From assembly GCA_963737635.1 (NCBI GenBank), contig CAVTTL010000001.1, positions 1,120,001 through 1,184,000 of the forward strand: DNA of 64,000 nucleotides. The letters are read 5' to 3'. Below the pieces are notes generated by a model, which saw only the letters and a program-made list of their open reading frames with translations, searched no databases and was not told the DNA's origin. Shown here in pieces: positions 29,968-47,362 of the stretch; position 1 is the first letter of the stretch, and each line of letters opens with the position of its first letter. The translations under genes were made by a program, and so were the position numbers. This DNA comes from an uncultured Methanoregulaceae archaeon (GTDB lineage Archaea > Halobacteriota > Methanomicrobia > Methanomicrobiales > Methanospirillaceae).

Positions 29968-30018
29968 TGTTTCAAAATATGTTTCAAATTCTGATTTTCG
30001 GGAAAGGGTCTTTAAAAA
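29968..30018 (+). promoter_or_regulatory. Stress-regulon promoter module 1 (upstream of cheW-like/ccdA/dipZ/msrA)
   Basis: tgtttcaaaata tgtttcaaattctgattttcgggaaagggtc TTTAAAAA. Confidence 0.8.
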
Positions 30019-30138
30019 TTTCCTTTAATACGGGTCTGGTGAAGATTTCCTGTCATGAAGGATTTCCTCATGCTCTTTTGGGAGCGTTGAGGAGTACTCC
30101 CTGCATGGCAACAGAATTGACATCCGAGGATTGAGAGT

Positions 30139-30732
30139 ATGGATCTTGTTACCTGTGAAAAAAATCCTGGTTATCCCGGAGATTTTCCACTCAGGGAAGA
30201 AAATGCACCGCTAGTAGAAACTCTGCAGTTGCTCGTTTTCGCTATTGAAAGGAAGTATTTTGCCATCGATCTCACGGAAGTAAGAGATATTGTCAGAGAA
30301 GCACGCATGAAACATCCGGATAGCGTCAAACCGTCAATAGTTAGAGGAATTATCCGGAGAAACCGGAGAAATACGATCGTTATTAATTTGAACCGCTGCC
30401 TCAGAATCCAGTGGGGATTTGACATCGATGAGAGGAACACTGGGATCCTCGTGCTCGATGAAAAAGTAGGGGATTCAACTCTGGGAATACTAGTAACCGG
30501 AATTTCGTCGATCGTGACCGTAAAATATTCCCGATTAAAGTCGGATCCAGTTCACGCAGGAAAAGACATTCTACCGATCCATGGTGTCATCAGAAAAACC
30601 GGATCCGGCATTTTCTCAGGAAATGGGAGCCCCATAATCTGGATAGATCTCCGGAGCCTGGTAAACAATTGCAGTTCTGGCGATCTCTTTGCCGACGGAG
30701 AGTCGGAGCTCGTGAGAATTGCAGATTTATAG
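30139..30732 (+). CDS. Divergent CheW-like domain protein
   Basis: QLLVF.....FAIDL.EVRDIV, VRGII..R..TIVINL, LGILV..I. Confidence 0.7.
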   Translation: MDLVTCEKNPGYPGDFPLREENAPLVETLQLLVFAIERKYFAIDLTEVRDIVREARMKHPDSVKPSIVRGIIRRNRRNTIVINLNRCLRIQWGFDIDERNTGILVLDEKVGDSTLGILVTGISSIVTVKYSRLKSDPVHAGKDILPIHGVIRKTGSGIFSGNGSPIIWIDLRSLVNNCSSGDLFADGESELVRIADL

Positions 30733-30911
30733 AATCAAGATAAAATGGCGCTCTTTGCGTCACACCGGAAAAGGATCAGAGGAAACAATTGATGAACATG
30801 AGTCAGGAAATTGTAGAAGATAATCGATGTTAAAGAGACAAAAACAGGAAGTTTCAATGGCATAACAGGAATTGCTCTCAAAAATTATCCCGGAAATGTC
30901 AGGGTAGGATC

Positions 30912-31622
30912 ATGATCGCAGTATCTTATATTGTAGCATTTATCGCAGGAATCGTCTCGTTTCTTGCGCCATGTGTTTTACCTTTAGTTCCCGGATTCCT
31001 CATCTATCTCGCAGGAACTTCCGCAAAGGAGGGATCCGGGAAGCGTTGGGACATTGTCCTCGCAAGTATCCTCTTTGTCGCCGGTTTCTCGCTTGTCTTC
31101 TCCCTCCTTGGAGTGCTCCTGAACACGATACTGACTTCAGTCTCAAATGGAGTGCAGCTCTGGTTGTCAAGAGCCGGGGGACTAATCATCATATTTTTTG
31201 GTCTTTATCTGGTCGGGTTGATCCGGATCAGCTGGCTTGAGCAGGAACATAAGTTCAGTGTTACCGGGATAAAATCGAAGTATCTTACATCTTTTGTTTT
31301 CGGGGTCGCATTTGCCGCCGGGTGGACCCCCTGCGTAGGTGCGGCACTTGGAGCGATCCTTGGTCTGGCAGCAACTCAGCCGACGCTTGCGTTCACACTT
31401 CTTCTCGTGTACTCGGCAGGTCTGGGTGTGCCATTCATCATCACCGGCCTGTTCGCTTCCCAAGCCGTAGGCTGGATCAAAAAATACTCACGTGTGCTTC
31501 AGTACGTCAATATCGTTTTCGGTATTCTGCTCATCATCATCGGCATTTTGATCTTTACCCAGACACTCTCACTCATTGCAAACCTGCCGGCACTCAACGG
31601 ATACCTCCTCGGGAGTGGATAG
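30912..31622 (+). CDS. ccdA: CcdA/DsbD-like thiol-disulfide membrane transporter
   Basis: SFLAPCVLPLVP and GWTPCVG motifs. Confidence 0.9.
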   Translation: MIAVSYIVAFIAGIVSFLAPCVLPLVPGFLIYLAGTSAKEGSGKRWDIVLASILFVAGFSLVFSLLGVLLNTILTSVSNGVQLWLSRAGGLIIIFFGLYLVGLIRISWLEQEHKFSVTGIKSKYLTSFVFGVAFAAGWTPCVGAALGAILGLAATQPTLAFTLLLVYSAGLGVPFIITGLFASQAVGWIKKYSRVLQYVNIVFGILLIIIGILIFTQTLSLIANLPALNGYLLGSG

Positions 31623-31624
31623 AT

Positions 31625-32725
31625 ATGGAAAAAAGAACCCTTGCACTCATTGTGGCCCTTATTCTTATCGCCGCAGCAATTGTTGCTCTTTCCTCGCTTA
31701 GTCCGAACCGGACCTATACTGGTACGGCAGTTACGCCGGGAAACCGGACGGTAATTAACGAAGAAAAAGCAAAGATTTACCCTTACGCAAAAGAGATTGC
31801 CGAGCCATCAGGATTCGTGAACGTCGATAATATCACAATAGGAAGCCTGATAGGAAAGGATGTCATCCTTGTGGACTTCTGGACATATAGTTGCATTAAT
31901 TGCCAGCGGACGATCCCGTACCTGGACCTCTGGTACGAAAAATACCATGATCAGGGTCTCGAGATCATCGGTGTCCATACACCGGAGTTCCAGTTCGAGC
32001 ACGATATCAGCAACGTCAGGATGGCCGTCCAGAAATTTGGTATCCAGTACCCTGTCGTGCTTGACAACAACTATGCCACGTGGGACTCGTACGGGAACCA
32101 GTATTGGCCCGAGGATTATCTCATCGACATCGACGGTTTCATCGTGTATCATCATATCGGGGAAGGCGATTACAACGAGACCGAGGCAGAGATCCAGACC
32201 CTTTTGATGGAGAGGGCGGAGGCGCTCGGCATTAACGTGAGCATATCAAATACAACCGGGGTTCCGGTTAATGCAGTTTCGATAAACTTTTCAGACATCG
32301 GGAGCCCGGAAACTTACTTCGGTGCAGCAAGAAACCAATACCTGGCAAACGGGCAACCTTCCGTAACCGGGCTCCAGACGCTTGTGTTACCTTCGGCAAT
32401 ACAGCTCAACGCGCTGTACTTATCCGGGACGTGGAACTTTGCTGATCAGTATGCAGAAAATACTGGAAATGCACGTATCGTGTTCCAGTATAACGCAAAG
32501 AATGTATATTTCGTTGCCAATGCCGACAATGCCACCGACGTGAATGTCCTGTTGGATGGAAAACCAATTATTAACAATGCCGGCGCTGATGTCAGCAATA
32601 GTACCGTTACCATCAAAGTCGATCAGCTGTATTCTCTTGTTCAGGGTAGCGATTATGGGGTACATACTTTGGAACTCGACATTCCGGAACCAGGATTAAG
32701 AGCATACACGTTCACATTCGGATGA
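31625..32725 (+). CDS. Membrane-anchored thioredoxin with DipZ-type C-terminal domain
   Basis: VDFWTYSCINC, GVHTPEF, NQYWP..YLID, SPETY, AYTFTFG. Confidence 0.85.
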   Translation: MEKRTLALIVALILIAAAIVALSSLSPNRTYTGTAVTPGNRTVINEEKAKIYPYAKEIAEPSGFVNVDNITIGSLIGKDVILVDFWTYSCINCQRTIPYLDLWYEKYHDQGLEIIGVHTPEFQFEHDISNVRMAVQKFGIQYPVVLDNNYATWDSYGNQYWPEDYLIDIDGFIVYHHIGEGDYNETEAEIQTLLMERAEALGINVSISNTTGVPVNAVSINFSDIGSPETYFGAARNQYLANGQPSVTGLQTLVLPSAIQLNALYLSGTWNFADQYAENTGNARIVFQYNAKNVYFVANADNATDVNVLLDGKPIINNAGADVSNSTVTIKVDQLYSLVQGSDYGVHTLELDIPEPGLRAYTFTFG

Positions 32726-32752
32726 TCGCAAGAAGTCTTGAGGAGGAGAACC

Positions 32753-33529
32753 ATGGATGAAAAACAGGAGACTGGGAAAAAAACAGAAAAAGCGACATTT
32801 GCCGGTGGGTGCTTCTGGTGCATGCAGCCGCCTTTCAGGATTGCTGAAGGTGTGATCAGTGCGATTTCAGGCTATGCAGGTGGCACAAAAGAAAATCCCA
32901 CGTACGAGGAGGTATCTTCCGGTACAACGGGACATGTCGAGGCAGTTCAGGTGACCTACGATGAAGAAAAAATATCGTATGACTCGCTGCTCGATATTTT
33001 CTGGAAACAGATAGACCCAACTGATCCTGCAGGCCAGTTCGCGGATAAAGGATCGCAATACAAGACAGTCATATTCTACCACGACGATGAACAAAAAAAG
33101 CTTGCAGAAGCATCAAAGAAGAAAATTGAAGCATCGGGAAAGTTTGCAAAACCCATTACCACAGAGATCCGGCCTTATACGAATTTCTACCCTGCCGAAG
33201 AGTACCATCAGGATTACGACCAGAAAAATCCGGGGCGTTACAGGGAATACAAAGTCCTTTCCGGCCGCGAATCGTTCATTAGTAAAATGTGGGAGACGCC
33301 ACGTGTTGTCCGCGTCTATGCCACTCCGGGATGTACCGGCTGCCGTGCAGTCAAGGAGTACCTCAAATCTAAGAAAGTGGAATTCACCGAAATTGATATT
33401 GCAGCCGATGAAGAGGCAAGAAATATGGTGATTGAAAAAACCGGCCACATCGGATCCCCAATCGTCCAGATAGGTGAAACCTTCATCTTTGGGTTTGACA
33501 AGAGGAAAATGGATCAATTACTGCCGTGA
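32753..33529 (+). CDS. msrA: Peptide methionine sulfoxide reductase MsrA fused to a glutaredoxin-like domain
   Basis: FAGGCFWC, FYPAEEYHQDY; C-terminal YATPGCTGC..P.V.IG..GFD. Confidence 0.92.
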   Translation: MDEKQETGKKTEKATFAGGCFWCMQPPFRIAEGVISAISGYAGGTKENPTYEEVSSGTTGHVEAVQVTYDEEKISYDSLLDIFWKQIDPTDPAGQFADKGSQYKTVIFYHDDEQKKLAEASKKKIEASGKFAKPITTEIRPYTNFYPAEEYHQDYDQKNPGRYREYKVLSGRESFISKMWETPRVVRVYATPGCTGCRAVKEYLKSKKVEFTEIDIAADEEARNMVIEKTGHIGSPIVQIGETFIFGFDKRKMDQLLP

Positions 33530-33577
33530 TCTCATTTTACCTAATTACGACCTTCCCCTATTTTCTGATGGAGGAAT

Positions 33578-33628
33578 CATTTCAGTACATGTTTCAAAAT
33601 CTGCTTTTTGAGGAAGATCCTTTAAAAT
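33578..33628 (+). promoter_or_regulatory. Stress-regulon promoter module 2 (upstream of sod)
   Basis: catttcagtaca tgtttcaaaatctgctttttgaggaagatcc TTTAAAAT. Confidence 0.8.
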
Positions 33629-33703
33629 TTCGTGGGAAATACCGAAACCGGATAGGACTATTCCTTTCATGATTAGTCCTCGAGAAAAAGGGAGGTATTG
33701 AAC

Positions 33704-34321
33704 ATGGAATCAGACAAATTCTACACGTTACCGAAGCTGCCTTATGACTATACAGCCTTGAAACCCTATATTTCTGAAGAACAACTAAAACTGCATCATC
33801 AGAAGCATCACCAGGCGTATGTCAACGGGGCAAATGCCATCTACGAGAAATTTGATAAAGCACGTAAAGAGAATTCAGACTTTGACGTTAAAGCGACATT
33901 CAAAGAGTTGTCATTCCATATAGGAGGATTTAAGCTCCACAATTTATTCTGGGAGAACCTTGCTCCCGCTGGGAAAGGCGGAGGCGGCGCTCCAAAAGGA
34001 GCACTTGGGGAAGCAATTAATACGGAGTTTGGGAAGTTCGACCGTTTCAAAAAAGAGTTTACTCAGGCCGCAGCAAGTGCCGAGGGATCAGGATGGGCCG
34101 CGCTGACGTTCTGCAGGAAAACCGGAAGGCCGCTTATAATGCAGATAGAGAAACACAATACCAATGTCTTCCCCGGTTTCGACATTATCATGGTCCTTGA
34201 TGTCTGGGAGCATGCGTATTATCTCGATTATAAGAATGATCGGGCAAAATTTGTCGATGCATTCTGGAATATCGTAAACTGGGATGAAATCGGCAGGCGC
34301 TTTGACCAGGTACGGAAATGA
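33704..34321 (+). CDS. sod: Fe/Mn superoxide dismutase
   Basis: [18 protein letters not shown]. Confidence 0.97.
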
Positions 34322-34479
34322 TAAAAACGCCGGGAAAGGTAATCCGGTGCAACAGGAAATCGGTACTGGTTCTTTATGATCAGATTGCCTGTAAAATAAG
34401 ATCATAAATTATTTCAACGGGAACCTGCAACGCCATCGCCGGCCTTTTAGGTTATCGCCGAATACTGGTGAATTGAACT

Positions 34480-35871
34480 ATGGCTGTGGAATATGATCTG
34501 ATTGTTATCGGAACTGGTGCGGCTGGCGTATCAGCAGCTACTACAGCAGTGCATCTGGATGCAGCTCATGTAGCCGTTATTGAGCGAGGGCCTCTCTGGG
34601 GCACATGTGTCAATACCGGGTGTATCCCAAGCAAATTTCTCCTTACTTTGGCCGGTTACAACTATTACCGTGGACATGGGCATACTGGTGTCCATATGGA
34701 GAGTCAGCTCGATCTTAAACAGGTGCTCGAGGAAAAAAATGTACTCCAGAAAAAGCTGCGGGAGAAAAAACGAGACAACCTTTTCACCAGACTTGGCGTC
34801 GAGCTTATAGAAGGGGAAGCGAAATTTCTCTCACCTTCTGTATTGCAGGTAGGCGACAGAAAACTCACTGCACAGCGTTTTATCATCGCGACTGGTTCTT
34901 CGCCTGCAGTCCCACCCCTTGACGGTATCAGATCGGTCCCGCTCATGACAAGCACGGACGCTATGGACCAGGAACAGATTCCCTCAACACTTACCATAAT
35001 CGGGGGAAGAGCACTCGGCCTTGAATTTGCCCAGCTGTATGCCCATTTGGGGACCCGTGTCACCCTTATCCAAAGAAGCCCCCGGATCATTCCTGAGGAA
35101 GATCCCGAGATCGCGGGCCTGATGACTGGCTATCTAACTCGTGAAGGGATTAATATCATCACTGGTGCGGAAATCAGGCGTATTGAACGAGCCGGGAGTG
35201 CGATTTCGGTTATTGTACGCGTTGGCGCAGAACAAAGGGTTATCTCTGGGGAACATCTCTTCCTTGCGACGGGACGTTCCCCGAATACAAAAGAACTCGA
35301 CCCCGGATCTGCAGGAGTTGACACGAGAAAAGACGGGGCAGTTATTGTTGATACTACCTTGAAGACATCTGCTCCCCACATTTGGGCAGCTGGTGATGTG
35401 ACCGGTGAACCGATGCTCGAAACAGCGGCAAAGTACGGCGGCGAAATCGCTGCATCAAATGCCCTGCGGGAATTGAAACGATCATACAATAGTGCGCTTC
35501 TCCCCAAGGGGATCTTCACCATGCCACAGGTTGCGAGCGTGGGAATGACTGAAGAGAGCGCCCGCAGAGCCGGCATGCAACCGGTATCACACAGCATCAG
35601 CACTGACTCGATGGCAAAGTTCTCGATAGATGGAGACACACGGGGCCTCGTAAAAATCGTTGCCGACCGGGCGACCCGGCGTATCTTGGGAGTTCACATC
35701 TGCGCTCCGCTTGCCACCGAAATGATCCAGGAAGGGGTCATTGCTGTTATGAGATACCTGACCGTGGATGATCTTGCGGGAACCCCTCACATCTTCCCAA
35801 CAGCGACAGAAGCACTTGCCGTTTGTGCCCGCGGCTTGCGGGACCATACCGGATCGTATCCTGAATGTTGA
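34480..35871 (+). CDS. Pyridine nucleotide-disulfide oxidoreductase, MerA-like
   Basis: GTGAAG, GTCVNTGCIPSK, WAAGDV, HIFPT; no C-terminal CC. Confidence 0.8.
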   Translation: MAVEYDLIVIGTGAAGVSAATTAVHLDAAHVAVIERGPLWGTCVNTGCIPSKFLLTLAGYNYYRGHGHTGVHMESQLDLKQVLEEKNVLQKKLREKKRDNLFTRLGVELIEGEAKFLSPSVLQVGDRKLTAQRFIIATGSSPAVPPLDGIRSVPLMTSTDAMDQEQIPSTLTIIGGRALGLEFAQLYAHLGTRVTLIQRSPRIIPEEDPEIAGLMTGYLTREGINIITGAEIRRIERAGSAISVIVRVGAEQRVISGEHLFLATGRSPNTKELDPGSAGVDTRKDGAVIVDTTLKTSAPHIWAAGDVTGEPMLETAAKYGGEIAASNALRELKRSYNSALLPKGIFTMPQVASVGMTEESARRAGMQPVSHSISTDSMAKFSIDGDTRGLVKIVADRATRRILGVHICAPLATEMIQEGVIAVMRYLTVDDLAGTPHIFPTATEALAVCARGLRDHTGSYPEC

Positions 35872-35897
35872 GTATTTCCTGAAATAGGGCAGAATCA

Positions 35898-35948
35898 TTT
35901 TTCAAATGATGTTCTATAATTTGGAAATTGTCAAAATAATTATCTGAT
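35898..35948 (+). promoter_or_regulatory. Degenerate copy of the promoter module
   Basis: tttttcaaatga tgttctataatttgg.. same 12-bp period, poor BRE/TATA. Confidence 0.3.
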
Positions 35949-35978
35949 GTTTGGACGCGACTACAGTGAAGTGGTTGT

Positions 35979-36876
35979 ATGAAAGCGTGTCTTGTGCTCA
36001 TGGCATTCTTGGTATTGATATCGATCCTTCTTGTCACTGGTTGCACCCAGAATCAAGCGTCCCAATCGGCAGCTCAGTCTGGTTCACCTCCGGCGTCGCA
36101 GCAGGCCACTCAGTCTGCTGATACCATTAAGGTTGCATCGTCTTCTCTGGGAAATATTCTCGTAGATGCACAGGGCAAGACCCTGTATTATTTTGCTCTT
36201 GACGTACCTGCAAGCGGTGCAAGCGTATGCAGTGGCTCATGTGCGGGTATCTGGCCGGTCTTCTATACCGGGGCGATTACCGTATCGCCGCCTCTAATGG
36301 CGTCCGACTTTTCGTCCTTCGTCCGGTCTGACGGCATGAACCAGACGACATACCGTGGATGGCCGCTCTATTACTTCCAAGGAGACAACAACCCCGGCGA
36401 CATCTCTGGTGAGAATGTCACCCATAACTGGTTTGTAGTCAAACCGGATGAAACCGTAATGATCGCCCAGCGTAGTTCATTAGGTTTATTCCTCGTCGAC
36501 AAGATGGGTAATACCCTGTATTACTTCGCAAAAGATACTCCGGGGATGAGTTCCTGTACAGGGGCATGCACGGGAAAATGGCCCCCATTCAATGCCGGGA
36601 CGGTTAGTGCTCCATCAGGTACTAAACCCGGCAGATTTCAGTACAGTGACGAGATCAGATGGAACTAACCAGTCCGCGTTTATGGGAAGACCGCTGTATT
36701 ATTTCTCCAACGATACTATGCCCGGGCAGACAAACGGCGAGGGGTTCAATAATCTCTGGTATGTTGCAAACGTTACCGGTTACGCTCCATCTGCACCCAC
36801 ACCAACACCTACACCGACCCCAACCCCCACACCAACCCCGACAACAGTGTCTTACGGTGGAGGAGGGGGCTATTAG
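35979..36876 (+). CDS. COG4315-type secreted repeat lipoprotein (Y-X4-D); one extra G at ~36618
   Basis: TGC lipobox-like signal; repeated G.TLYYF..D / CxGxC...WP / GxPLYYF; PT-rich tail. Confidence 0.85.
36793..36843 (+). repeat. Pro-Thr coding repeat linker
   Basis: APTPTPTPTPTPTPTPT. Confidence 0.8.
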
Positions 36877-36904
36877 AGAGGATCCGGTGTTAAACGGGGG
36901 CTGT

Positions 36905-37981
36905 ATGAGTGTCTTATCTCCCTACAGGATGGGGGACCTCGTTCTTTCGAACCGGATGGTTATGGCACCGATGACCCGGTGTCGTGCTGGAAAAGGCAAT
37001 ATACCGGGTCCATTATCGGTTATCTATTATGAGCAGAGATCATCCGCAGGTCTCATTATTTCTGAAGGTTCACAGGTAAGCCCCCAAGGTGTTGGTTTCT
37101 ACCGGACACCAGGAATTTATTCAACCGGACAAGTTGAAGGCTGGAAAAGTGTAACACGGGCGGTTCATCGCGCCGGGGGAAAGATCTTCCTCCAGCTCTG
37201 GCACGTTGGGCGTATGTCACACCCCGATTACCTGAACGGCGGGCTTCCGGTCGCCCCGTCAGCGCTTCCGGTCAACGAAGAGATCCATACTCCGGTTGGC
37301 AAGAAAATGATCCCGGTTCCCCGGGCACTCGAACCAAAGGAGATCCCGGAGATCGTACAGCAGTTCGGGAAAGGTGCCGCAAACGCGAAAGAAGCAGGTT
37401 TTGACGGTGTTGAAATCCATGGAGCAAATGGTTACCTGCTGGACCAGTTTCTCAGGGATGGTTCGAACCAAAGGACGGATAACTATGGGGGAACTCTTAA
37501 AAACCGGGCACGTTTACCGCTTGCGGTTGCTGAAGAAGTGGCAAGGGTGTGGGGCCCAAAAAGAGTTGGGTATAAAATCTCACCTCATTTTCTAAACCAT
37601 GCCATGTCTGATACGAATCCCCGGGAGACCTTTGCTTACTTGGCACAGGAGCTGGGCAGGCTGGGTATAGGCTATATTCATCTTGTGGAGCCGATCGGGG
37701 GAAGGCTCGGGCAAATACAACCCGAGATGCAGATGGCCCCTCTAATCCGTAAAAAATTCGATGGCACGCTTATCCTTAACGGAGGCTATGATCTCAAAAG
37801 CAGCACTGAAGCAATTGAGAGCGGCCTTGCTGACCTGATCGCTTTCGGTGTCCTGTTCCTGGCAAACCCGGATCTTCCCGAGAGATTCGGGAAGAATACG
37901 TCTCTGAATCGCGAAGACATCTCAACATTTTATTCAGGTGAAGAGAAGGGATACACGGATTACCCGTCGCTCGGGTCGTAG
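36905..37981 (+). CDS. Old yellow enzyme / alkene reductase (NemA-like)
   Basis: MAPMTRCRA, QLWHVGR, EIHGANGYLLDQF, GYTDYP. Confidence 0.93.
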   Translation: MSVLSPYRMGDLVLSNRMVMAPMTRCRAGKGNIPGPLSVIYYEQRSSAGLIISEGSQVSPQGVGFYRTPGIYSTGQVEGWKSVTRAVHRAGGKIFLQLWHVGRMSHPDYLNGGLPVAPSALPVNEEIHTPVGKKMIPVPRALEPKEIPEIVQQFGKGAANAKEAGFDGVEIHGANGYLLDQFLRDGSNQRTDNYGGTLKNRARLPLAVAEEVARVWGPKRVGYKISPHFLNHAMSDTNPRETFAYLAQELGRLGIGYIHLVEPIGGRLGQIQPEMQMAPLIRKKFDGTLILNGGYDLKSSTEAIESGLADLIAFGVLFLANPDLPERFGKNTSLNREDISTFYSGEEKGYTDYPSLGS

Positions 37982-38041: not shown

Positions 38042-38353
38042 TCATTTTTTCCCGAGAAGTCCCTGAGCATACCGTTGTGCCATCTCGGACCCCTTCGTGC
38101 AATAGAACCTGTTTTTGAGCCCGATCTCGCTCGTAACCGGGCAGGTCGGGCAAATACAATCTTTCTCCTGGGAAATACAGACAAAACTCTTTCCTTCTGC
38201 ACAAAAGAGTATTTCCTTGGCATTCTTCGCACATCCAGTGTATGTCGGGCATGAAGGACAGGTACACATCTTCTTGAACGTTTCCACTGCCTCCATCATC
38301 TGGGCAGGCGACATTCCTGCCATCGACTTCATCGCATCATCGAATTTGTCCAT
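38042..38353 (-). CDS. DUF2769-like Cys-rich protein
   Basis: C.CPSCPTY..C..LFC..GKS..C..C.CPTCPV..FYC..G. Confidence 0.8.
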   Translation of the reverse strand: MDKFDDAMKSMAGMSPAQMMEAVETFKKMCTCPSCPTYTGCAKNAKEILFCAEGKSFVCISQEKDCICPTCPVTSEIGLKNRFYCTKGSEMAQRYAQGLLGKK

Positions 38354-38372
38354 GATATTTCCCTCCGACTAT

Positions 38373-38852
38373 CTATTCAATGGCAATTTTTCCCCCGGAA
38401 TCTTTTGCTACCTTCTTGAGATGGATTTCCAGAACACCATTCTTGAACGTTGCAGAGGAAGCATTTTCTGTCACCGGTTTTGGGAGGGGAACGATCCGTG
38501 TCATCGATCCAAAACTGCGCTCACGCAGATAGTAGCCCTCGTTTTCCTCTTTTCTTTCCTCCCTGCGTTCGCAGGATATCTCAAGAGCTTGCGGAGTAAC
38601 CAGATCTAGAGAAATATCCTTTTTGGCCAGTCCCGGGATCATATCGGCAGTCACGACAACTTCGTCGTCCTTTTCGGTGACATCTACATGCAAGTCTGTG
38701 CGCTGTGCAGGAAGCATCTTTGTCCCTGCTTCCGCGGTAGCGGGTAACAACGCCGCCGGGCCAGTATCGTACATCTGCCGCGACAAAGACTCCATATACT
38801 TCCGCATGTCTTCGAGTTCATCAAAGATCGATCTATAATACCATCGGACCAT
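38373..38852 (-). CDS. Hsp20/alpha-crystallin small heat-shock protein
   Basis: VDV.E....ADMIPG, RERSFG..R..LP, A.FKNGVLEI. Confidence 0.93.
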   Translation of the reverse strand: MVRWYYRSIFDELEDMRKYMESLSRQMYDTGPAALLPATAEAGTKMLPAQRTDLHVDVTEKDDEVVVTADMIPGLAKKDISLDLVTPQALEISCERREERKEENEGYYLRERSFGSMTRIVPLPKPVTENASSATFKNGVLEIHLKKVAKDSGGKIAIE

Positions 38853-38970
38853 TATTCTCACCCCATTTTTTAGTGCGGATCCCAATCCGCAGAAGGTAAG
38901 GAATCATTGTTATCCCGATGTGTCCCCGGGTAACCTGCTATCCTTATCAGGTAGCATATTGTTGAAGAAT

Positions 38971-39021
38971 ATTTTATCAATTTAATCTGAAAACTCATAT
39001 TTTGAAACATTTTTTGAAAAG
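38971..39021 (-). promoter_or_regulatory. Stress-regulon promoter module 3 (upstream of hsp20)
   Basis: Reverse complement: cttttcaaaaaa tgtttcaaaatatgagttttcagattaaatt GATAAAAT. Confidence 0.72.
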
Positions 39022-39082
39022 AATAATACCGGTCGTTCGTGCCTGGATAGGCAACCCGAGCTGAGAATTATCTACGATTAGA

Positions 39083-39359
39083 TCAACTGGTTAAATCTTC
39101 GGGTCTCAGCAACGAAAGGACAGCCTCAATATTGGAGATCTCGCGCTTGATGATTTCTTCATGAAAATAGTACCTCAGTTTTTGTTCGAATTTCAACCGG
39201 AAATTGTGGTTCCATCCGTGTCCCGGATCGGTACTGGTTCCTGATATAGAACTGGAACTCGTCAAGATCCTGGCGGGTGAGTTTGTCGATGAACATTGCC
39301 TGGTACTTATTCATCAGGTACTGTTTCGTATCTCCAAAAGGAATGTTTTCTTGTGCCAT
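39083..39359 (-). CDS. Small hypothetical protein (~90 aa), joined by removing one G at 39230/39231
   Basis: MAQENIPF..RNQY+DPGHGWNHNFRLKFEQKLRYYF..; two overlapping ORFs that join in frame. Confidence 0.5.
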
Positions 39360-39374
39360 GTTATCCACGAAGTG

Positions 39375-39599
39375 TCATACCGACGATTTAATCCTGTGCA
39401 GATCGGGGTCAATCAGATAAATTGCCGGATTGTTAAGGAGATCAAGCACATTGATCTTCTGATCGATAAGCTCATCATAGGTGAAGAAATTGTTATTCTC
39501 ATTTCCTGCACCGGACCAGAACACCTGGACACCATTTTGGTATTTTTTACTACTTTCAATCTGTTGCATTTTTTTCCTCTTCCTATCTCTCCTCTTCAT
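39375..39599 (-). CDS. Small hypothetical protein downstream of dnaK
   Basis: Compact ORF co-oriented with dnaK, globular composition. Confidence 0.55.
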   Translation of the reverse strand: MKRRDRKRKKMQQIESSKKYQNGVQVFWSGAGNENNNFFTYDELIDQKINVLDLLNNPAIYLIDPDLHRIKSSV

Positions 39600-39753
39600 G
39601 CCATTCCGGGAAATGAAGTCCCAATGGCAGACGCTTCTCTTCTGGACTATTTGCTCCGTGCCGGAATGCCGTTTTCAGATCGTCAGGTGAAGCATCCCAT
39701 CTTACGCCAAGTACCTCGTAATAATCACCCTTCGCCATGGGTCGGGGAAACTA

Positions 39754-41622
39754 TTATTTTTCATCATTCACTTTGAAATCCGCGTCGACAACCCGCTCGC
39801 CTCCCTGACCGCCTGGCTCTTCACCTGAGGATGCAGCCTGCGGGCCGGGCTGCTGCTGTGCTTGCCGGCGGGCGGTCTCCTGGTACGCGGCTGATCCCGC
39901 TTCCCCGAGAACCTTTTGGAGTTTTTCGGTTTCCGACTTTATTTTTGCAACATCCTTACCTTCCAGTGCCGCTTTGACAGCAGTTATTGCCCCGTTAAGC
40001 CGGTCCGTCACGTCAGCATCTAGTTTGTCGGCCAGGTCGACCTTCGTTTTTTCCGCAGTATACACTAAGGAATCGGCGGTATTGCGTGACTCAGACTCCT
40101 CTCTTATTGCCTTGTCCTGCTCCTCGTATTCTTTGGCATCGCTGACCATCTTTTTCACATCGCTGTCAGAAAGTTTCGTTGAAGCGGTAATGGTCATCTT
40201 CTGCTCTTTACCGGTGCCGAGATCTTTTGCCGAAACATTGAGGATACCGGAAGCATCGATATCGAACGTAACTTCGATCTGCGGAACGCCCCGGGGAGCC
40301 GGCGGAATGCCTACGAGGTTAAACTGGCCAAGGCTTACATTGTCTGCCGCCATCGCCCGTTCACCTTGGAGTACATGAATGGTAACCGAGGTCTGCATAT
40401 CTGCTGCGGTAGAAAAGATCTGGCTCTTCTTCGTCGGGATCGTCGTATTCCTGTCGATTAGAGGGGTTCTTACACTCCCAAGCGTTTCAAGGCCTAGGGT
40501 CAAGGGTGTGACATCGAGGAGCACCATGTCCGTGATCTCTCCTCCAAGGATCGCCCCCTGAATCGCTGCACCCATGGCAACGCACTCCATCGGATCGATG
40601 CCTCGTACCATCTTATTGCCGACATGATCTTCGATGAATTTCTGGACGACCGGCATCCGGGTCGGTCCCCCGACAAGGATCACCTTCTGGATATTCCCTT
40701 TGGTCAGTTTCGCATCTTTCAATGCCTGGTCGAACGGGACGATACACCGTTTAATGATCGGTTCAATCAGCTGTTCGAGCTTGGCACGTGACAATTTGAT
40801 GGAGAGATGCTTGGGGCCTGATTGTGTCGCAGAAACATAAGGAAGATTGATCTCAGTTTCGAGCACCGTCGAAAGCTCGATCTTTGCCTTCTCGGCTGCT
40901 TCTTTTACCCGGTTGATTGCCATCTTGTCGGTGCGTAGATCTATCCCTTCCTGCTTCTTGAACTCTGCCGCGATCCATTCGTAGATTGCATTGTCCATAT
41001 CGGTACCGCCGAGCTGGGTATCACCAGATGTCGCGAGAACGGTAAATGTACCGCCGCCAAACTCCATGATGGTGACATCGAGGGTACCACCACCAAGATC
41101 GAATACGAGGATCTTATACTCGCCTCCTTTATCAAGCCCATAAGCCATGGATGCCGCTGTGGGCTCGTTGACAAGCCGCACGACTTCGAGACCGGCAATT
41201 TTTCCCGCATCCTTGGTCGCCGTCCTCTGGTTGTCGTTAAAGTAGGCAGGTACCGTAATTACTGCCTTCTTTACTGGTTCGCCCAAGAAGGCTTCCGCGT
41301 CTCTTTTTATCTTCTGCAGGAGAAATGCCGAGATCTGCTGGGGTGTATATTCCTTCCCGTAAATCTTGTAAATATGAGAGGTGCCGATCTTCCTTTTTGC
41401 CGCTGTTACCGTGCCGTCAGGGTTGCTTACGGTCTGCCTTCTGGCTGGTTCCCCCACAAGGAGCTGGCCGTCAGCGGTAAATGCGACATACGAAGGAAAC
41501 ATTTTCCCGGCAACAGTCGCTCCTTCTGCAGAAGGAATAATAGTCGGTTTGCCGCCAACCATTACTGCTGCTTCGCTGTTGGATGTTCCAAGGTCAATAC
41601 CAATAATTTTTTCCTTACTCAT
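39754..41622 (-). CDS. dnaK: Chaperone DnaK (Hsp70)
   Basis: [30 protein letters not shown]-terminus. Confidence 0.98.
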
Positions 41623-42103
41623 TCTTCTCACCTTTGGGTTCCACTATGTGTTCTGCAATCTTTACTTTCGAAGGCCTGATCACTTTGGATTTCAACCGGT
41701 AACCTTTTCCCAGATCCTCAAGGATCGTGTTCTGCTCGCCGGAGCACTTCTCTGTGCATATGGCTTCATGGCACTGTGGATCGAATTTTTTTCCGATGCA
41801 TTCTATAGGCTGCAGGCCATACGAGGATAGGACATTAATGAATTTTTTATAAATCATCTCCATTCCCTCCCTGTTTTTTTCCTGTTCGAGGCATGGAAAT
41901 GCATGTTCGAAATCATCAAGGATCACGAGGAGATCCTCTATCAGGCGCTCATTTGCGAGCTCCGTGATCAGCTCTTTTTCTTTTGCTGAGAACCTGCGAA
42001 AATTCTCAAAATCGGCCTGAAGGTACCTAAGCTGGTTAAGTCGCTCCCCGGCAAAACGGGTCTGTTCCTCAAGTTCTTTTTTTAGTTGTCCGATCTCATC
42101 CAT
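41615..42103 (-). CDS. grpE: Nucleotide exchange factor GrpE
   Basis: [29 protein letters not shown]; GAGGTGA RBS before ATG 42103. Confidence 0.93.
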
Positions 42104-42399
42104 CGGATCACCTCTTTTTTTATCGCTCTCCGTATGCCTTTCAGTCAAACCGGGGATGGATCCAGTAACGCCGGATGAAATCGGAATATATACAGCTCTC
42201 TGAATGACAACGGTTACAACCATCTCCCGGACAATAAAATCCGCCAAGGTAAACTGTTGCAAAAGGGTATTTTTTAACGCATCCTTTGCCTTTGCACAAA
42301 TTACCCCCGTTTTTCTCTATGCTCTCACCCGTTACACGCAATCTGCCTGCAGTTTCAAATACGGGAATCGATCTCACCCGTGAGCGCATTAATTAGGAG

Positions 42400-42450
42400 A
42401 TATAATAGGATCTTTCTTAGAAACCAGATTTTGAAACAAAATTTGAAATA
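42400..42450 (-). promoter_or_regulatory. Stress-regulon promoter module 4 (upstream of grpE-dnaK)
   Basis: Reverse complement: tatttcaaattt tgtttcaaaatctggtttctaagaaagatcc TATTATAT. Confidence 0.82.
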
Positions 42451-42478
42451 TCAGGAGGATTTTTTTTAAGAAATCCAA

Positions 42479-42946
42479 TCAGCAATATCCTGTTCGCAGG
42501 TCTTCTGGCCTGCCTCCCGTCATCGCAAACCTGTTTTCAACATCCTCCTGGAAATATCCCAGGTGAATTAAATCACGCTGTATCGCGACAAAAAACGAGG
42601 GATTCAAGGGAATGCCGGAGTAATCAGCAAGGAGATCGGCAAGAATCCCTGGCAATTCAACCCCTCTTTCACGATAAATCTGCTGTAACAGCATGAAAAA
42701 TGCATTATTTACTGTATCATTTCCGTATAGATCAGGTTTATCGCGGGATAATCCCAATAGCCCGTCCCACATTTCGTAGATGCCATGTGCCCTGCAAAAC
42801 TGCGAAAACTGTTCGGATGCCAAGTAGTCAAGAATACCCAGACGCCGTAAATGATCTGCCAACTGCCTGATTAATTTCCGCCAATCCTGTGGTATGGGTA
42901 CACGATCTTCCCCGTGAAGGCCGCTTGATATCATAAATATGGACAT
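42479..42946 (-). CDS. Hypothetical protein
   Basis: 155-aa ORF abutting the GT4 gene in an operon. Confidence 0.55.
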   Translation of the reverse strand: MSIFMISSGLHGEDRVPIPQDWRKLIRQLADHLRRLGILDYLASEQFSQFCRAHGIYEMWDGLLGLSRDKPDLYGNDTVNNAFFMLLQQIYRERGVELPGILADLLADYSGIPLNPSFFVAIQRDLIHLGYFQEDVENRFAMTGGRPEDLRTGYC

Positions 42947-42952
42947 TATGAA

Positions 42953-44092
42953 TCAACTGCACACCTGAGCATAGGTACCCGCCATCCGGGTTGCAATAGG
43001 GCTCCAGAGGAACTGCCGGTCTACCTTAGTTCTTCCCCGTCTACCGAGTACCTGCGCATTGGTAGGATCGCGAATTAACGTGCCGATCCCCCATGCGAGT
43101 GATCCGGGTTCCGGCTGCACTTTGATCCCGTTCACGAACGTATCGATGTTTTCCGAAAGGCCCCCGACATCACAGGCAACGACTGGTTTCTCCGCGCTCC
43201 ATGCTTCAAGGAGGACAAGTCCAAATGGTTCGTTCCTACTCGGGATAACGACCAGATCGCACGCATTCAGGAGACGGATGTATTCCGAGTCAGGGATGTA
43301 CCCTACAAAATTGACCGGGAGATCCTTTGCCCGCTCCTGAAGGTACTGTCGCATCCCCCCGTCGCCGGCAACGATCACTTTTGCATCCCAGTGTTCACGG
43401 CATACCGACCGTAACGCCTCGATAAACAGATCAGGGCCTTTCTGGTATACCAGCCTGCCGACAAAGAGGATCAGCGGGGCATAAGGATGGATCCCATAAC
43501 GCTGTTTAACCTCCCCGGGATCGATACTCGCTTGGTACTGCTGTGGCACGATACCATTTGGTACCACATCGCATTTCCAGTCAGGGACGTTATAGAGCTG
43601 CATTACCTCGTTCTTCATCACAGTCGAGACTGCGGTCACCCTTTTTGCCACCAGGCCACCATACCATTCCTTGCCGGAGATTGCGTTATACTCCCACCAG
43701 CCCCCAAATTGGTTGCCATTCCTGCCGTATTCCGTGGAATGGAACGTAAGAATAGTCTCCCGGTCCTGCAACCGGTGCAGCGCCTGGACTGGGTGCCAGT
43801 CATGGAAGTGTAGGATATCGAATTTTCCTTTCTGGTCGCACTGCCGGAACTGATCCACCATCTGGTTGCTCATGTCCTCGCAGTACTGAACGGTATTGTT
43901 GCCCTGTGGCCGGCAGTAATGGTACGACACGCCATTGATGGTCTGGTCCTGCATCCACCCGCGGGTGAAGAAGTGAATCTCATGATCCTTTGCAAGAGTC
44001 TCGGCAAGGTGGGTTGCCGCACTCGCGAGTCCCCCGACGCGCTCAGCATACAGGGACTCCCAACAGAAGAATGCTACGTTAAGCGACTCCAT
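42953..44092 (-). CDS. GT4 glycosyltransferase (glycogen-synthase-like)
   Basis: RVGGLA, HFHDW, HSTEYGR, VGRLVYQKG, EPFGLVLLEA. Confidence 0.88.
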   Translation of the reverse strand: MESLNVAFFCWESLYAERVGGLASAATHLAETLAKDHEIHFFTRGWMQDQTINGVSYHYCRPQGNNTVQYCEDMSNQMVDQFRQCDQKGKFDILHFHDWHPVQALHRLQDRETILTFHSTEYGRNGNQFGGWWEYNAISGKEWYGGLVAKRVTAVSTVMKNEVMQLYNVPDWKCDVVPNGIVPQQYQASIDPGEVKQRYGIHPYAPLILFVGRLVYQKGPDLFIEALRSVCREHWDAKVIVAGDGGMRQYLQERAKDLPVNFVGYIPDSEYIRLLNACDLVVIPSRNEPFGLVLLEAWSAEKPVVACDVGGLSENIDTFVNGIKVQPEPGSLAWGIGTLIRDPTNAQVLGRRGRTKVDRQFLWSPIATRMAGTYAQVCS

Positions 44093-45528
44093 AACTGTTC
44101 CCTCCGCTCGTTCATGATCGTAATCAGTTCCTGCCGGTCCCGGCGCCCGCTAATATCCCCGGCCAGTTTCTGGTCTTGGAGCGTATGTTCGATCCATTGG
44201 GCAATATCGCCCCGCTCTTGGTGATAGATAATCGAATCCGCTGGCACTACTTGGAGCAGGTCGCAGAACTGGTCGAGACTGTAGGCGGCATACCCGACGT
44301 ACCCCGAAGGTGAGGTGAAATGAAATGCCTCTTCCGGTGTCAGGGTCCGCAGGGTCTTTGCCGATCGTTTGTTTTTCATAAGCCGGATATTCCGGTTTTC
44401 GAAATCGGCAAGGATTGCCATGTAGGTCTTAAATGCGTCACCGGCCTCGTGGTGGCTGAAGTAGTTATGTACTTCACCGCAGGTTCCGTACTTGGAGGCC
44501 ATATAATAGAAGTGGTCACTGGTCTGGAGGTACCGCCATATCGCCTTATCCTTGGCAAACGCGGCCGCCTTCTGGATCGCAGAATATGCCGTATGCTGAC
44601 GCTCGTTGCCCATCCACGCAGATGCGTCCTTCTCGATATCGGCCCAGGATATAGTCTCCCGGACATCAATCGTACCGACCGGCAGATAACTCTCCAGTGC
44701 TTCAGTAGGCAGGATGGTCCGTACACCCCGCTTTTCCAGCTCTTCCGGAAGAAACGAGAGAAAATTGAGGATCCCGGTCTCTTTCCAGAAATGTTCCCCA
44801 AAGGTCTCGTAATCGATAAAAACGTTTACCAGATCACCGGATGTACCGCTTATCCATTCAGCATAGGTGTCTGCCGTCAGCGGGAACTTGTCCCACCCCC
44901 GGTTGCCAAACCGGAAAGCGATATCGTCAGAGACTTGGGTATCGCGGAGGAGGACCGGCATATCTTCACAACTATAGATGTGGTGCGGGCTGCGCCAGTT
45001 GAGAATCCGGTCCACACCTTCGGTGTAGACTCCAGTATACCCCATCTTTTTTACACAGGACGCGATGTTGTTATTAAACGTAAATTCAGTATTTTCAAAA
45101 ACCACCGGACGGATCCTGAAAAGGTCATACATCAGGTCGGTATGCATGGTAGCCTGTTCCATAAACTCCGACTTATCCCCAAAGCAGCCTGCAATGCTAT
45201 GGTAATAGGTCTGTCCCAGCAGCTCGGTATTCCGGTGCCGGGCTACCTGGTCGAAAAGGGCAAGGACATCCGGTTTCCATTTCTCCAGCTGCTCGATAAG
45301 CGTCCCGGAAAAAGAAAACGTACAGTGGAATCCTTCGTCGAGTTTTTCTAGGATGATCCGGGTGGCCGGCAGGTAACATTTTTCTGCAACCCTGTCCAGG
45401 ACATCCCGGTTAATTTCATCGAAATAGAGCGCATCGAGATCCTTTTCCTTCTTCTTTGGATCCGGTGAGAAGTGCCGGTTCAGCCTGAATGGCTGGTGCA
45501 CTTCAAATCCGATACAGATATCTGGCAT
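44074..45528 (-). CDS. GH57 alpha-amylase with C-terminal DUF5752-like domain
   Basis: FEVHQPFRL, QTYYHS, ENTE, DYETFGEH, LQTSDHFYYM. Confidence 0.92.
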   Translation of the reverse strand: MPDICIGFEVHQPFRLNRHFSPDPKKKEKDLDALYFDEINRDVLDRVAEKCYLPATRIILEKLDEGFHCTFSFSGTLIEQLEKWKPDVLALFDQVARHRNTELLGQTYYHSIAGCFGDKSEFMEQATMHTDLMYDLFRIRPVVFENTEFTFNNNIASCVKKMGYTGVYTEGVDRILNWRSPHHIYSCEDMPVLLRDTQVSDDIAFRFGNRGWDKFPLTADTYAEWISGTSGDLVNVFIDYETFGEHFWKETGILNFLSFLPEELEKRGVRTILPTEALESYLPVGTIDVRETISWADIEKDASAWMGNERQHTAYSAIQKAAAFAKDKAIWRYLQTSDHFYYMASKYGTCGEVHNYFSHHEAGDAFKTYMAILADFENRNIRLMKNKRSAKTLRTLTPEEAFHFTSPSGYVGYAAYSLDQFCDLLQVVPADSIIYHQERGDIAQWIEHTLQDQKLAGDISGRRDRQELITIMNERREQLWSRLT

Positions 45529-45684
45529 TTATTCTCGTCCTCCAATCATGGTCTTGCCTACCGACTGTTTCCTGGATGGTTTCGGGGATGTACTTACCTA
45601 TTCTCACACCCCTACACACCCTATCCCCCCATCATGTGGCCCTAGTGGTCGGGTGATAACAATCATCCTGCTTTCTCTCAGGAA

Positions 45685-45735
45685 CAATAATAGACCCTTT
45701 CCCGAGTATCAGATTTTGAAACACGGGTTGAAACC
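45685..45735 (-). promoter_or_regulatory. Stress-regulon promoter module 5 (upstream of GH57-GT4)
   Basis: Reverse complement: ggtttcaacccg tgtttcaaaatctgatactcgggaaagggtc TATTATTG. Confidence 0.8.
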
Positions 45736-45772
45736 AGAGCCCCCCCGATTAAAACTGAGTCAAAATACAATT

Positions 45773-46444
45773 CTAATACCCGAGGGACTCGCTGACAAGG
45801 ACAAGGTTAATGCGCCCTTCCTGCTTCTCGTTTGCAAGAATCACGCATTTCCCGATCATACTGGGAGTACCATAGGCTTTCATAGCCCGGGTATTCTCAA
45901 GAGGGAAGACATATTTCCTGATCCGGTTTAGTGCGTCCTCGACCGTGGGGACAATTTTATTGACCCCTGCGACCAGAACAAGATGCCCCGCAGCAAAAGG
46001 CCACGCACCGACACGGCTTCCGCTGGCATCGCAAGCAACAATCTCACCTCTCTGGGAAATCGCATTCACTGACGAGATGAAATAATCGGCCGTAACGGAT
46101 TTTCTCCGCAGCTCTGCACGTTTTACCGGATCATCCTCGGCAGTGATCTTCGTATGTAAAAGATTCCACCCACTCTTTCCTCCGGCAACATAATCCTCGA
46201 ACCCGATCTCGATAAGGGTTGTCGAGGAACCGCTCATAACTTCAGCGTTAGGTGGGATAAGTTTCCGAACCGCTGCAAGCGCCTCGTCGCCATTTGCAGC
46301 ATGGGAAACCTTTATCCCCCGTTTTTCTAGAGCCTTAATTGTTATAGCAACAACTTCCGGTGTCGGAAAAATGTTCCACGAATCCGCATCCACGGCACTT
46401 TCCGGGTAAAGGTTTACGGCGCTATACGGGGTAATTCTACTCAT
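45773..46444 (-). CDS. LUD-domain (lactate-utilisation LutC/YkgG-like) protein
   Basis: GSSTTL.EIG, DYFISSVNAI...GEI..D..G.RV, G.NKIVP. Confidence 0.8.
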   Translation of the reverse strand: MSRITPYSAVNLYPESAVDADSWNIFPTPEVVAITIKALEKRGIKVSHAANGDEALAAVRKLIPPNAEVMSGSSTTLIEIGFEDYVAGGKSGWNLLHTKITAEDDPVKRAELRRKSVTADYFISSVNAISQRGEIVACDASGSRVGAWPFAAGHLVLVAGVNKIVPTVEDALNRIRKYVFPLENTRAMKAYGTPSMIGKCVILANEKQEGRINLVLVSESLGY

Positions 46445-46482
46445 GTGCCCTCTTGTCGCCTTGTAGGTACAGGACACCAGAC

Positions 46483-46731
46483 TTAACCGGATCGGCTTTC
46501 CGCCACCGCGGTCTCCTGTACCGAGCCCAACCGGTACTGGTATATAATCTGGCGCATATCCTGCAGGTTCATCTTCTCGATGAGGAGTTTCTTCTCCTTG
46601 AGTTTTTTTAACGCGTAACGCACCGTTCGTGGCGAGTAGTTCACTTTTCCGGCGATCTCCTTGTGAGTCATGGCACCACCGGTACCAAGAATCTCAAGGA
46701 CGATTTTTTGTGACTGAGGTAATGATTTCAT
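46483..46731 (-). CDS. Small winged-helix transcriptional regulator
   Basis: LP.SQK.VL..L...G.MT.KEIA....YSPRTVRYALKKL..D.RQ..Y. Confidence 0.85.
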   Translation of the reverse strand: MKSLPQSQKIVLEILGTGGAMTHKEIAGKVNYSPRTVRYALKKLKEKKLLIEKMNLQDMRQIIYQYRLGSVQETAVAESRSG

Positions 46732-46758
46732 AATTCACTCCTTGGTTTATGCGAGGCA

Positions 46759-47109
46759 TCAGCCGCAGCTGGTCCCGCAACTTTCACTCTGCCCGCTGTC
46801 TGCTGCATCCTTATCTGCTAAGATACGGGGAAGCGCTTTTTTTACAAAATCATCGATCGTTCCCATCTCTCCCCAGGATTCCGTCTCGTAATTCTCGGAA
46901 TTATCCGGATTGGGCAGGATCAGCACATTGCCCTCCTCGCTCGGTCCGGAGACATACTTTTTCCCCCGGTGCAGGTTGTGTACACCTTCCGCACCGCCTT
47001 TGGGGATCCGTGCATAGATAATCCAGTAGGTCAGTTTATCTGTTGCACTAACATAGACCTCATAATCCTGCTCGAACTTTTTTAAGAGTTCCAGTGTTTT
47101 ATCCTCCAT
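46759..47109 (-). CDS. Hypothetical protein
   Basis: AGGTGA RBS then ATG 47109; C-terminal C..SCG. Confidence 0.6.
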   Translation of the reverse strand: MEDKTLELLKKFEQDYEVYVSATDKLTYWIIYARIPKGGAEGVHNLHRGKKYVSGPSEEGNVLILPNPDNSENYETESWGEMGTIDDFVKKALPRILADKDAADSGQSESCGTSCG

Positions 47110-47311
47110 GATCTCACCTGGTCCTAGTGCCTGCATCTCACGATGACAGATTCATTTTTTCGTTCTCTCTGGTTTTCTATCTTGATCCGGTTTGAATCAC
47201 CGGACTCATTGGCGACCGGATTGACGCGATACAACGGCATTCCTTGTTTTTTTTGGAAAACTACCGGTTTTTTGGGGCGCCTTCCCTGCCTGCATGGAAC
47301 TGGACAACAAA

Positions 47312-47362
47312 AAGGTATAGGTTCTTTCCCGAACAGCAATCTATGAAACAAATTTTGAAACA
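47312..47362 (-). promoter_or_regulatory. Stress-regulon promoter module 6 (upstream of hypothetical-wHTH-LUD operon)
   Basis: Reverse complement: tgtttcaaaatt tgtttcatagattgctgttcgggaaagaacc TATACCTT. Confidence 0.78.

Follow-up and report, generated by a model that had tools for sequence, protein, structure and literature searches.

The 64-kb stretch of DNA examined here, referred to below as the window (G000:C1:1120001-1184000), comes from the 2.46-Mb genome G000 of an uncultured Methanoregulaceae archaeon, with a GC content of 52%. It carries the same promoter module, about 55 bases long, in front of six groups of genes, and this raises the question of whether these genes form one regulon and which protein would read their common element. 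A preliminary description, based on the letters of the window, had proposed that the module is the shared cis-element of a general-stress regulon. The present analysis found that the module behaves as a functional promoter element, rather than as a repeat or a product of chance, and that it tends to occur together with a response regulator, not noticed in the preliminary description, whose gene lies in the same genomic island. The reading favoured here, to which a probability of roughly 55% is assigned, is that the module is the binding site of this neighbouring two-component regulator, which would activate a stress regulon.

The six module sites are present in the window at the positions and on the strands listed in Table 1, and they align without gaps, as had been described. 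At none of the six sites does the sequence TTTCA vary in either repeat, a TG occurs 12 nt past the proximal TG in all six, and a tract GAAAG or GGAAG is found at a common offset in five, being absent from the hsp20 site; each of these features agrees with the preliminary description. The module consists of two, perhaps three, direct repeats with a 12-bp spacing, nnTTTCAnnnnn-TGTTTCAAAATC-TG(a)TTTT, followed by a TATA element at a fixed distance. Each of the six sites lies 61-226 nt 5' of an open reading frame (ORF) on the same strand. The downstream genes were assigned by Pfam as CheW-like, DsbD_TM, thioredoxin-like, MsrA-glutaredoxin, Fe/Mn superoxide dismutase (SOD), HSP20, GrpE, HSP70, GH57, GT4, small winged helix-turn-helix (wHTH) and LUD proteins, in agreement with the names proposed earlier.

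The chance level for the repeat pair was estimated from 100 dinucleotide shuffles of the 64-kb window. With at most one mismatch allowed, the pattern TTTCA-N5-TGTTTCA was found seven times in the window, six times exactly, against a mean of 0.44 expected and a largest shuffle count of 2, so that an origin by chance, one of the outcomes that could have undone the proposal, is not what was observed. Taken singly, the 9-mer TGTTTCAAA shows hardly any enrichment (27 copies against 17.8 expected), and therefore the special part is the repeat pair together with its context.

Among 87 unique repeat pairs collected from fetched loci, 62 have TATA, TTTA or TATT starting exactly 31 nt past the proximal TG, the next commonest offsets being 34 (11 pairs) and 17 (9 pairs); these pairs were ascertained on the repeats alone, and because the model used to retrieve part of the loci contains the TATA element, a residual ascertainment bias is left in these counts. 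The fixed distance of 31 nt, claimed earlier for the six sites, therefore extends well past the window. A set of 34 module sites from several genomes also aligns without gaps, and both in this alignment and in the 62 pairs the repeats take a position immediately upstream of the B-recognition element (BRE) and TATA element, at a fixed distance from them.

A genome scan with a position weight matrix had been suggested as a check, and a 52-nt matrix was built from eight clear sites of G000 for this purpose. The training sites scored 52-70 bits and five independent sites 30-39 bits, while the next best match reached 17.6 bits, so that 13 sites stand clearly apart from the background. The second scan used R1, a sequence-only covariance model; constructed from the 34 sites of several genomes and applied at E<=0.01, returned 12 sites in G000, six of them within an island of 17.4 kb in the window. 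The site at C1:496893, upstream of a gene for an ATP-cone protein, scored 30.4 bits with the matrix and was not reported by R1 at this threshold; it is counted only as a possible thirteenth site. All 13 are located 60-230 nt upstream of an ORF on the same strand. Targets outside the window are a bacterial-type GAPDH, a 47-aa desulforedoxin, three small HEAT/PBS-repeat proteins and a 117-aa protein without a name. Most of the nameable genes downstream of the 12 promoters belong to oxidative defence, chaperones or carbohydrate metabolism, and on this gene content 'general stress' is a provisional label. The TTTCA-N7-TTTCA pair at C1:235436 and a few others scored below 12 bits with the matrix and were assigned to the background.

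Could the similarity of the sites be something other than regulatory, a coincidence or a duplicated promoter or small repeat that has spread within the island? The concentration of six of the 12 genomic sites within 17.4 kb could suggest local duplication, and the module DNA is AT-rich (GC 0.17-0.42) for a genome of such composition. This explanation is nevertheless hardly credible, since the flanks and the non-motif columns differ between sites, other sites are found far from the island (at 0.2, 0.5, 1.73 and 1.76 Mb of C1), the shuffles and the controls with reversed patterns gave counts close to zero, and the module stands upstream of orthologues in dozens of genomes, with protein identities of 60-90%.

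The distribution of the module was determined at several levels. A strict 24-nt pattern was found in 11 of 24 congeneric genomes and in none of 16 genomes from five other families, its reversed control giving 0/41. R1 matched 69 of the 101 Methanoregula genomes, among them 36 of the 46 high-quality ones; a genome holds as many as 19 modules, often in clusters, and that of Methanoregula boonei 6A8 has nine. In a sample of the order it matched 22 of 121 genomes, and the strong matches all come from Methanoregula, from a single genome of a sister genus and from g2, a genus of a second family. The sister-genus module lies upstream of a Cys-rich ORF that precedes grpE. Among 68 ORFs downstream of the modules of relatives there were 11 SOD, five GH57, four HSP20 and four GrpE proteins, about ten Cys-rich ORFs of 78-82 aa preceding grpE, four small wHTH and four DUF1059 proteins, with DUF2769, CheW-like, AHSA1, PEGA and DUF488 proteins occurring once each. 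The conservation upstream of sod, dnaK and hsp20 orthologues, whose examination had been recommended, was thus seen in many Methanoregula genomes for sod, hsp20, grpE-dnaK and also GH57. Regulon membership differs between species. Enrichment, exclusive location in promoters and conservation together bear out the claim of a shared cis-element, and it is very probable that both the element and its regulon are real and conserved.

The DUF1059 proteins are 56-67 aa long and were seen downstream of a module in four other Methanoregula genomes (L022, L081, L083 and L088) and at none of the module sites of G000.

In the genus g2 the module takes a variant form, TCTTTTCAAAATCTGTCTCAAAATCTG, which occurs once or twice per genome (L114:2862-5985 of G130; L101-L107) and keeps two perfect T(T/C)TCAAAATCTG units. 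The order of features in this genus is a kinase-regulator pair, the module, a 706-aa wHTH-PAS-PAS-kinase and a TrmB-like regulator, an arrangement more reminiscent of a signalling cascade than of a regulon of stress genes.

Association with a particular regulator gene provides an indication of which protein may bind the module. In the sample of 101 Methanoregula genomes, 60 have both the module and the regulator and 27 have neither, whereas nine have the module only and five the regulator only. Seven of the nine module-only genomes are at most 76% complete and the other two contain weak matches only. None of the five regulator-only genomes exceeds 85% completeness, and in two of these the regulator is a paralogue of 44-45% identity. 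Among the 46 high-quality genomes the corresponding numbers are 34 with both, two with the module only (weak matches), none with the regulator only, and ten with neither. For the 121 genomes of the order sample, module and regulator are both present in 14 and both missing from 94; the eight with the module only have weak partial matches (E>=1.4e-4), and four of the five with the regulator only have relatives of at most 42% identity. Four congeners without module and regulator still possess sod (69-74% identical), and the DNA upstream of it is unrelated.

Three congeners without module and regulator (G004, G015 and G003; L160-L162) share a different, conserved stretch located 60-110 nt upstream of sod, CCTGCC(G/A)CCAT(C/G)CA(G/A)TAC..., which may be the site of another regulator.

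Module and regulator are also physically linked. A module on the same strand is present within 1.5 kb downstream of the regulator gene at 24 of 30 loci, usually at a distance of 0.6-1.3 kb. Where a genome encodes two regulator paralogues, each is followed by a module (e.g. G049 and G201), and in g2 the only one or two modules of each genome directly follow the kinase-regulator pair.

The candidate regulator consists of a receiver domain (REC), an alpha/beta domain of about 150 aa that belongs to no family, and a C-terminal winged helix of the PadR type. In other genomes it is a single protein of about 450 aa; the g2 protein is 63% identical. The orthologue of Methanoregula boonei, ABS56046.1 (P0128), matches Response_reg with 82.5 bits and PadR with 28.5 bits, against a cut-off of 27, and the gene directly past it is Mboo_1529. 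Receiver and PadR domains were recognised in all 21 aligned homologues, the PadR match covering the C-terminal 90 aa or so with a best E-value of 5.8e-10, and in none of the 21 did Pfam find a Trans_reg_C output domain. The residues D8, D9, D53, T81, K103 and P104 are invariant in these 21 sequences.

In the window itself, at the edge of the island, the regulator appears as a receiver ORF and a 290-aa protein whose PadR match (19.5 bits) is below the cut-off and whose C-terminus is frame-shifted. Contigs of four out of four public sequencing runs, from four studies of which one is possibly the source of the assembly, are without one letter at 48794, and all three runs that cover 48000 are without one letter there; contigs of other runs also have C for T at 48460. 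Because the contigs of other runs do not contain the extra bases, the split and the unusual C-terminus are attributed to assembly errors, and the regulator is intact in the population. Other genes of G000 may be broken by similar single-base insertions.

The predicted structure of the full-length regulator, with a mean predicted local distance difference test score (pLDDT) of 68.8, includes the receiver, a disordered linker, a domain of alternating beta and alpha elements (pLDDT 60-84) and the winged helix; modelling the C-terminal 270 aa on their own gave a poorer result (pLDDT 54). A Foldseek search of the PDB with the regulator model returned matches to receiver domains only, and the middle domain has no Pfam match at E<=5. 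Its resemblance to MEDS (PF14417), with an Atlas feature score of 0.77, serves as a lead only.

Directly upstream of the regulator gene in the window, in M. boonei and in g2 lies a gene for a sensor histidine kinase which, according to Pfam, has an N-terminal domain with multiple transmembrane segments, PAS/GAF, HisKA_2 and HATPase domains. The window divides it into a 327-aa membrane part and a 969-aa part; in M. boonei it is a single protein of 1253 aa, with 68% identity over 928 aa.

If the regulator acts through the module, the kinase would sense a stress signal, for which redox state or oxygen is a guess based on gene content, and would phosphorylate the canonical receiver, in which neither Asp53 nor the other receiver residues vary. 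The regulator would then bind across the tandem repeats, immediately upstream of BRE/TATA (about -73 to -40), these positions assuming an inferred transcription start about 25-30 nt past the TATA element, and would help to recruit TFB and TBP, activating all module promoters together. The small wHTH protein encoded within the regulon would act as a secondary or feedback regulator.

Activation is favoured because the conserved repeats are placed upstream of BRE/TATA at a rigid distance, and it is the probable role of the module. The opposite possibility is that the module is the operator of a repressor, or the site of an unlinked factor, and that the fixed spacing reflects a steric block of TFB and TBP. 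The degenerate third repeat and a conserved AA at -7/-6 of the TATA element abut the BRE region, where a bound protein could occlude TFB, and the known archaeal heat-shock regulators Phr and HSR1 are repressors. The best-conserved positions are situated 30-55 nt upstream of the TATA element, however, and not over TATA, BRE or the transcription start, and with an unlinked factor the co-occurrence and adjacency of the kinase-regulator pair would have to be put down to coincidence. A repressor or unlinked factor is considered improbable.

The geometry of the site was assessed with the help of the g2 variant. A partial dyad, AAAATC-T-GATTTT, can be recognised in the Methanoregula consensus, and direct repeats are favoured over it because g2 keeps two repeat units and loses the dyad. 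By analogy, direct repeats fit tandem binding of the kind found at the pho box.

An alternative binder is encoded within the regulon itself. The small wHTH protein (82 aa) has matches of the HTH_24/MarR type and no RAM domain in Pfam; its best named relative is Mboo_1535 of M. boonei 6A8, which places G000 in the genus Methanoregula and bears out the order Methanomicrobiales presumed in the preliminary description, and a search of PDB sequences gave weak matches of the MarR/AdcR type (E>=0.005). According to the main rival explanation, this protein binds the module and regulates its own gene, the response regulator being merely a neighbour in the island. Its gene is inside a module-driven operon and stands directly past a module in G019, G013 and G104, and in a tree of 33 homologues all eight rows with a module in the fetched locus fall within one group of 11, composed of Methanoregula only, the other 22 rows, a widespread group, being without a module. 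The support for this group is weak (73/99), though, and regulon membership alone explains the linkage. The small wHTH was also not found in four of the five g2 genomes that have both module and regulator, and a site of about 36 bp with three repeats is not what one would expect for a protein of 82 aa in which no oligomerisation domain is evident. That it is the principal binder appears unlikely; a secondary or feedback factor is its likely role. The wHTH-PAS-kinase of g2 was rejected as a common binder, as its relatives in G000 are many scattered paralogues with at most 31% identity over the full length.

For the response regulator, the chance of being the cognate factor is put at somewhat better than even, and several observations weigh against it. 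At six of the 30 regulator loci a strong module is missing from the adjoining 1.5 kb. Co-occurrence and adjacency could both be explained by inheritance of one genomic island, and related genomes are not independent observations, so that Fisher P values overstate the case; given this non-independence and the position of the regulator inside the island, the association is strong, but it is not proof. Other candidates for binding are the small wHTH (clade A) and two proteins of g2, the wHTH-PAS kinase and the TrmB-like protein encoded downstream of the module. The middle domain of the regulator belongs to no family found. Proteins of the PadR family usually bind inverted repeats as dimers, while the best-conserved features of the module, as far as the alignments indicate, are direct repeats, and their 12-bp period is longer than a helical turn. 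Finally, the activating role is deduced from position alone. The fuller picture, in which a stress regulon of oxidative defence, chaperones and glycogen/glycolysis is run by a two-component system whose PadR-output regulator sits on pho-box-like repeats at a fixed distance from TATA, is offered tentatively, with slightly less than an even chance of being correct.

A second type of site was detected at the promoter of the kinase-regulator operon. Here a conserved inverted pair, GATCTCAyTTTTTGAAAC (52988-53005 of the window; L116:240-257), stands beside a TATA element in both G000 and M. boonei. The pattern was found in 13 of 101 genus genomes, the reversed control giving 0, and at least five of its sites are upstream of the kinase gene. 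This arrangement hints at autoregulation in a different geometry. The inverted pair uses the module half-sites TTTCA/TCTCA. A single TGTTTCAAA at 52987 (+) was rejected as a module, being part of this inverted element.

Among known systems, the bacterial PhoB/OmpR regulators with the pho box offer a parallel to the proposed logic: a winged-helix response regulator with an adjoining kinase and tandem direct repeats at a fixed distance upstream of the core promoter, co-activating a scattered regulon. The differences are an archaeal host with TBP/TFB promoters, a PadR output instead of Trans_reg_C, an extra alpha/beta domain between receiver and winged helix, and a period of 12 bp instead of 11. 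The analogy with Lrp-type activators drawn in the preliminary description stands as regards position, since Ptr2 (Lrp, Methanocaldococcus) and TFB-RF1 also bind upstream of BRE/TATA at a fixed distance, a geometry by which TBP/TFB are recruited; it fails as regards the protein, because the domain checks of the small wHTH and the regulator linked no Lrp/AsnC protein with a RAM domain to the sites. In addition, the repeats here are direct and not palindromic, and the candidate is a response regulator controlled by phosphorylation. With the PadR family the regulator shares its C-terminal domain, which is here fused behind a receiver and another domain, and its putative sites are direct repeats where PadR operators are palindromes; of the sites described here, only that of the kinase operon is an inverted pair.

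The archaeal stress regulators Phr and HSR1 (heat shock) and MsvR and RosR (oxidative stress) are one-component factors with palindromic sites of different sequence. They resemble the present case in having chaperone or oxidative-defence genes as targets, and to our knowledge none of them combines sod, msrA, hsp20, dnaK and glycogen genes under one motif.

FilR1 (Methanosaeta), LtrR (Methanococcoides) and Bat (haloarchaea) are, like the candidate, archaeal two-component regulators with a helix-turn-helix (HTH) output, arranged as wHTH-DUF1724-REC in FilR1 and HTH-REC in LtrR, in contrast to the order REC, middle domain, PadR wHTH seen here. A census of archaeal two-component systems (Galperin et al. 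2018, PMC5847659) states that archaea possess very few response regulators that bind DNA. The term PadR does not occur in the main text of that census, and ABS56046.1 is absent from those of its supplementary files that were searched, all but one. The census describes a domain of about 300 aa in Methanoregula, MetOD5, and its example, ABS56126, has an accession other than ABS56046.1; from the parts of the census consulted, identity of the two domains is neither shown nor excluded.

A search of a paper library on the motif, on the genus together with stress or promoters, on archaeal two-component systems with PadR, and on the M. boonei locus tags returned nothing relevant, in line with the earlier statement that no described motif of this form was recognised. 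A regulon governed by a two-component transcription factor is a well-known kind of system, but the motif, the architecture of the regulator and the set of genes in an archaeon appear to be undescribed. No archaeal DNA-binding response regulator with a defined motif and regulon of this kind was found.

In acidic peat and wetland soils, where methane output is controlled by exposure to oxygen and by swings in temperature, Methanoregula is a dominant methanogen, and we know of no account of how methanogens of this order co-ordinate their defence against oxygen and heat. Should the fuller picture outlined above be correct, it would provide the first defined DNA target and regulon for a regulator of such architecture in archaea, and would join a signalling logic of bacterial style to a eukaryote-like promoter, making the system a case study of bacterial-type signalling output in contact with the archaeal TBP/TFB machinery. 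The positions of the ~55-nt modules, the target operons, and the candidate regulator and kinase form a package that can be tested in cultured M. boonei 6A8, and the module could serve methanogen genetics as a natural inducible promoter cassette.

Table 1. Modules, candidate regulatory genes and related elements of the island, in window coordinates.
Feature	Position	Strand	R1 score (bits)	Downstream genes and remarks
Module 1	29968..30025	+	55.7	CheW-like 30139-30732; DsbD_TM/ccdA 30912-31622; thioredoxin-like, to 32725; MsrA-glutaredoxin 32738-33529 (Pfam)
Module 2	33577..33635	+	53.7	Fe/Mn superoxide dismutase 33698-34321 (Pfam)
Module 3	38965..39022	-	32.3	hsp20 38373-38885; DUF2769 38042-38353; weakest module, without GAAAG tract
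Module 4	42394..42450	-	52.8	Cys-rich 82-aa ORF 42141-42389; grpE 41615-42262; dnaK 39754-41631
Module 5	45679..45735	-	46.2	GH57 44074-45528; GT4 glycosyltransferase 42953-44092; 155-aa ORF 42479-42946
Module 6	47306..47362	-	48.4	125-aa protein of no family 46759-47136; small wHTH (P0001) 46483-46731; LUD-domain protein 45773-46477
Repeat pair without TATA	47809..47825	+		One mismatch; opposite to the regulator gene, just past its stop and before the Hsp20-like gene 47398-47763
Candidate regulator	47947..49246	-		Two frames in the window: P0127 48791-49246, P0006 47947-48819
Sensor histidine kinase	49230..52908	-		Two overlapping frames in the window; Pfam
GATCTCATTTTTTGAAAC	52988..53005	-		Inverted pair TCTCA / TGAAA; the TATA-like TTTAAATAA of the kinase-regulator operon follows after ~12 nt

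Some further features of the operons in Table 1 deserve mention. The CheW-like protein encoded by the first gene after module 1 is a stand-alone protein and heads the ccdA-thioredoxin-msrA operon in G000 as well as in G077 (L068), whereas ccdA is the first long ORF past the module in M. boonei. A CheW-like protein is an unusual partner for disulfide-repair genes.

The first gene of the grpE-dnaK operon, on the minus strand, encodes a protein of 78-82 aa which has a C-x4-C-x2-C-x5-C cluster and belongs to no Pfam family. The same ORF precedes grpE in about ten relatives and in the sister genus (L097), and its product might assist the chaperone system as a partner that responds to redox state.

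Partial matches in the opposite orientation, consisting of the repeats only, adjoin the regulator gene at 12 of 30 loci of relatives (e.g. L133:1131-1167, L131:1348-1373 and L127:1274-1305), as does the repeat pair without TATA in the window. The small Hsp20-like gene next to that pair has its M. boonei counterpart in Mboo_1529.

Outside the window, a looser second cluster was noted at G000:C1:496893-514103 (L002, L003), 0.65 Mb from the island. It comprises three weaker modules, upstream of the ATP-cone protein and of two HEAT/PBS-repeat proteins of about 130 aa, and one strong module upstream of GAPDH; the third HEAT-repeat target is located at C1:204363.

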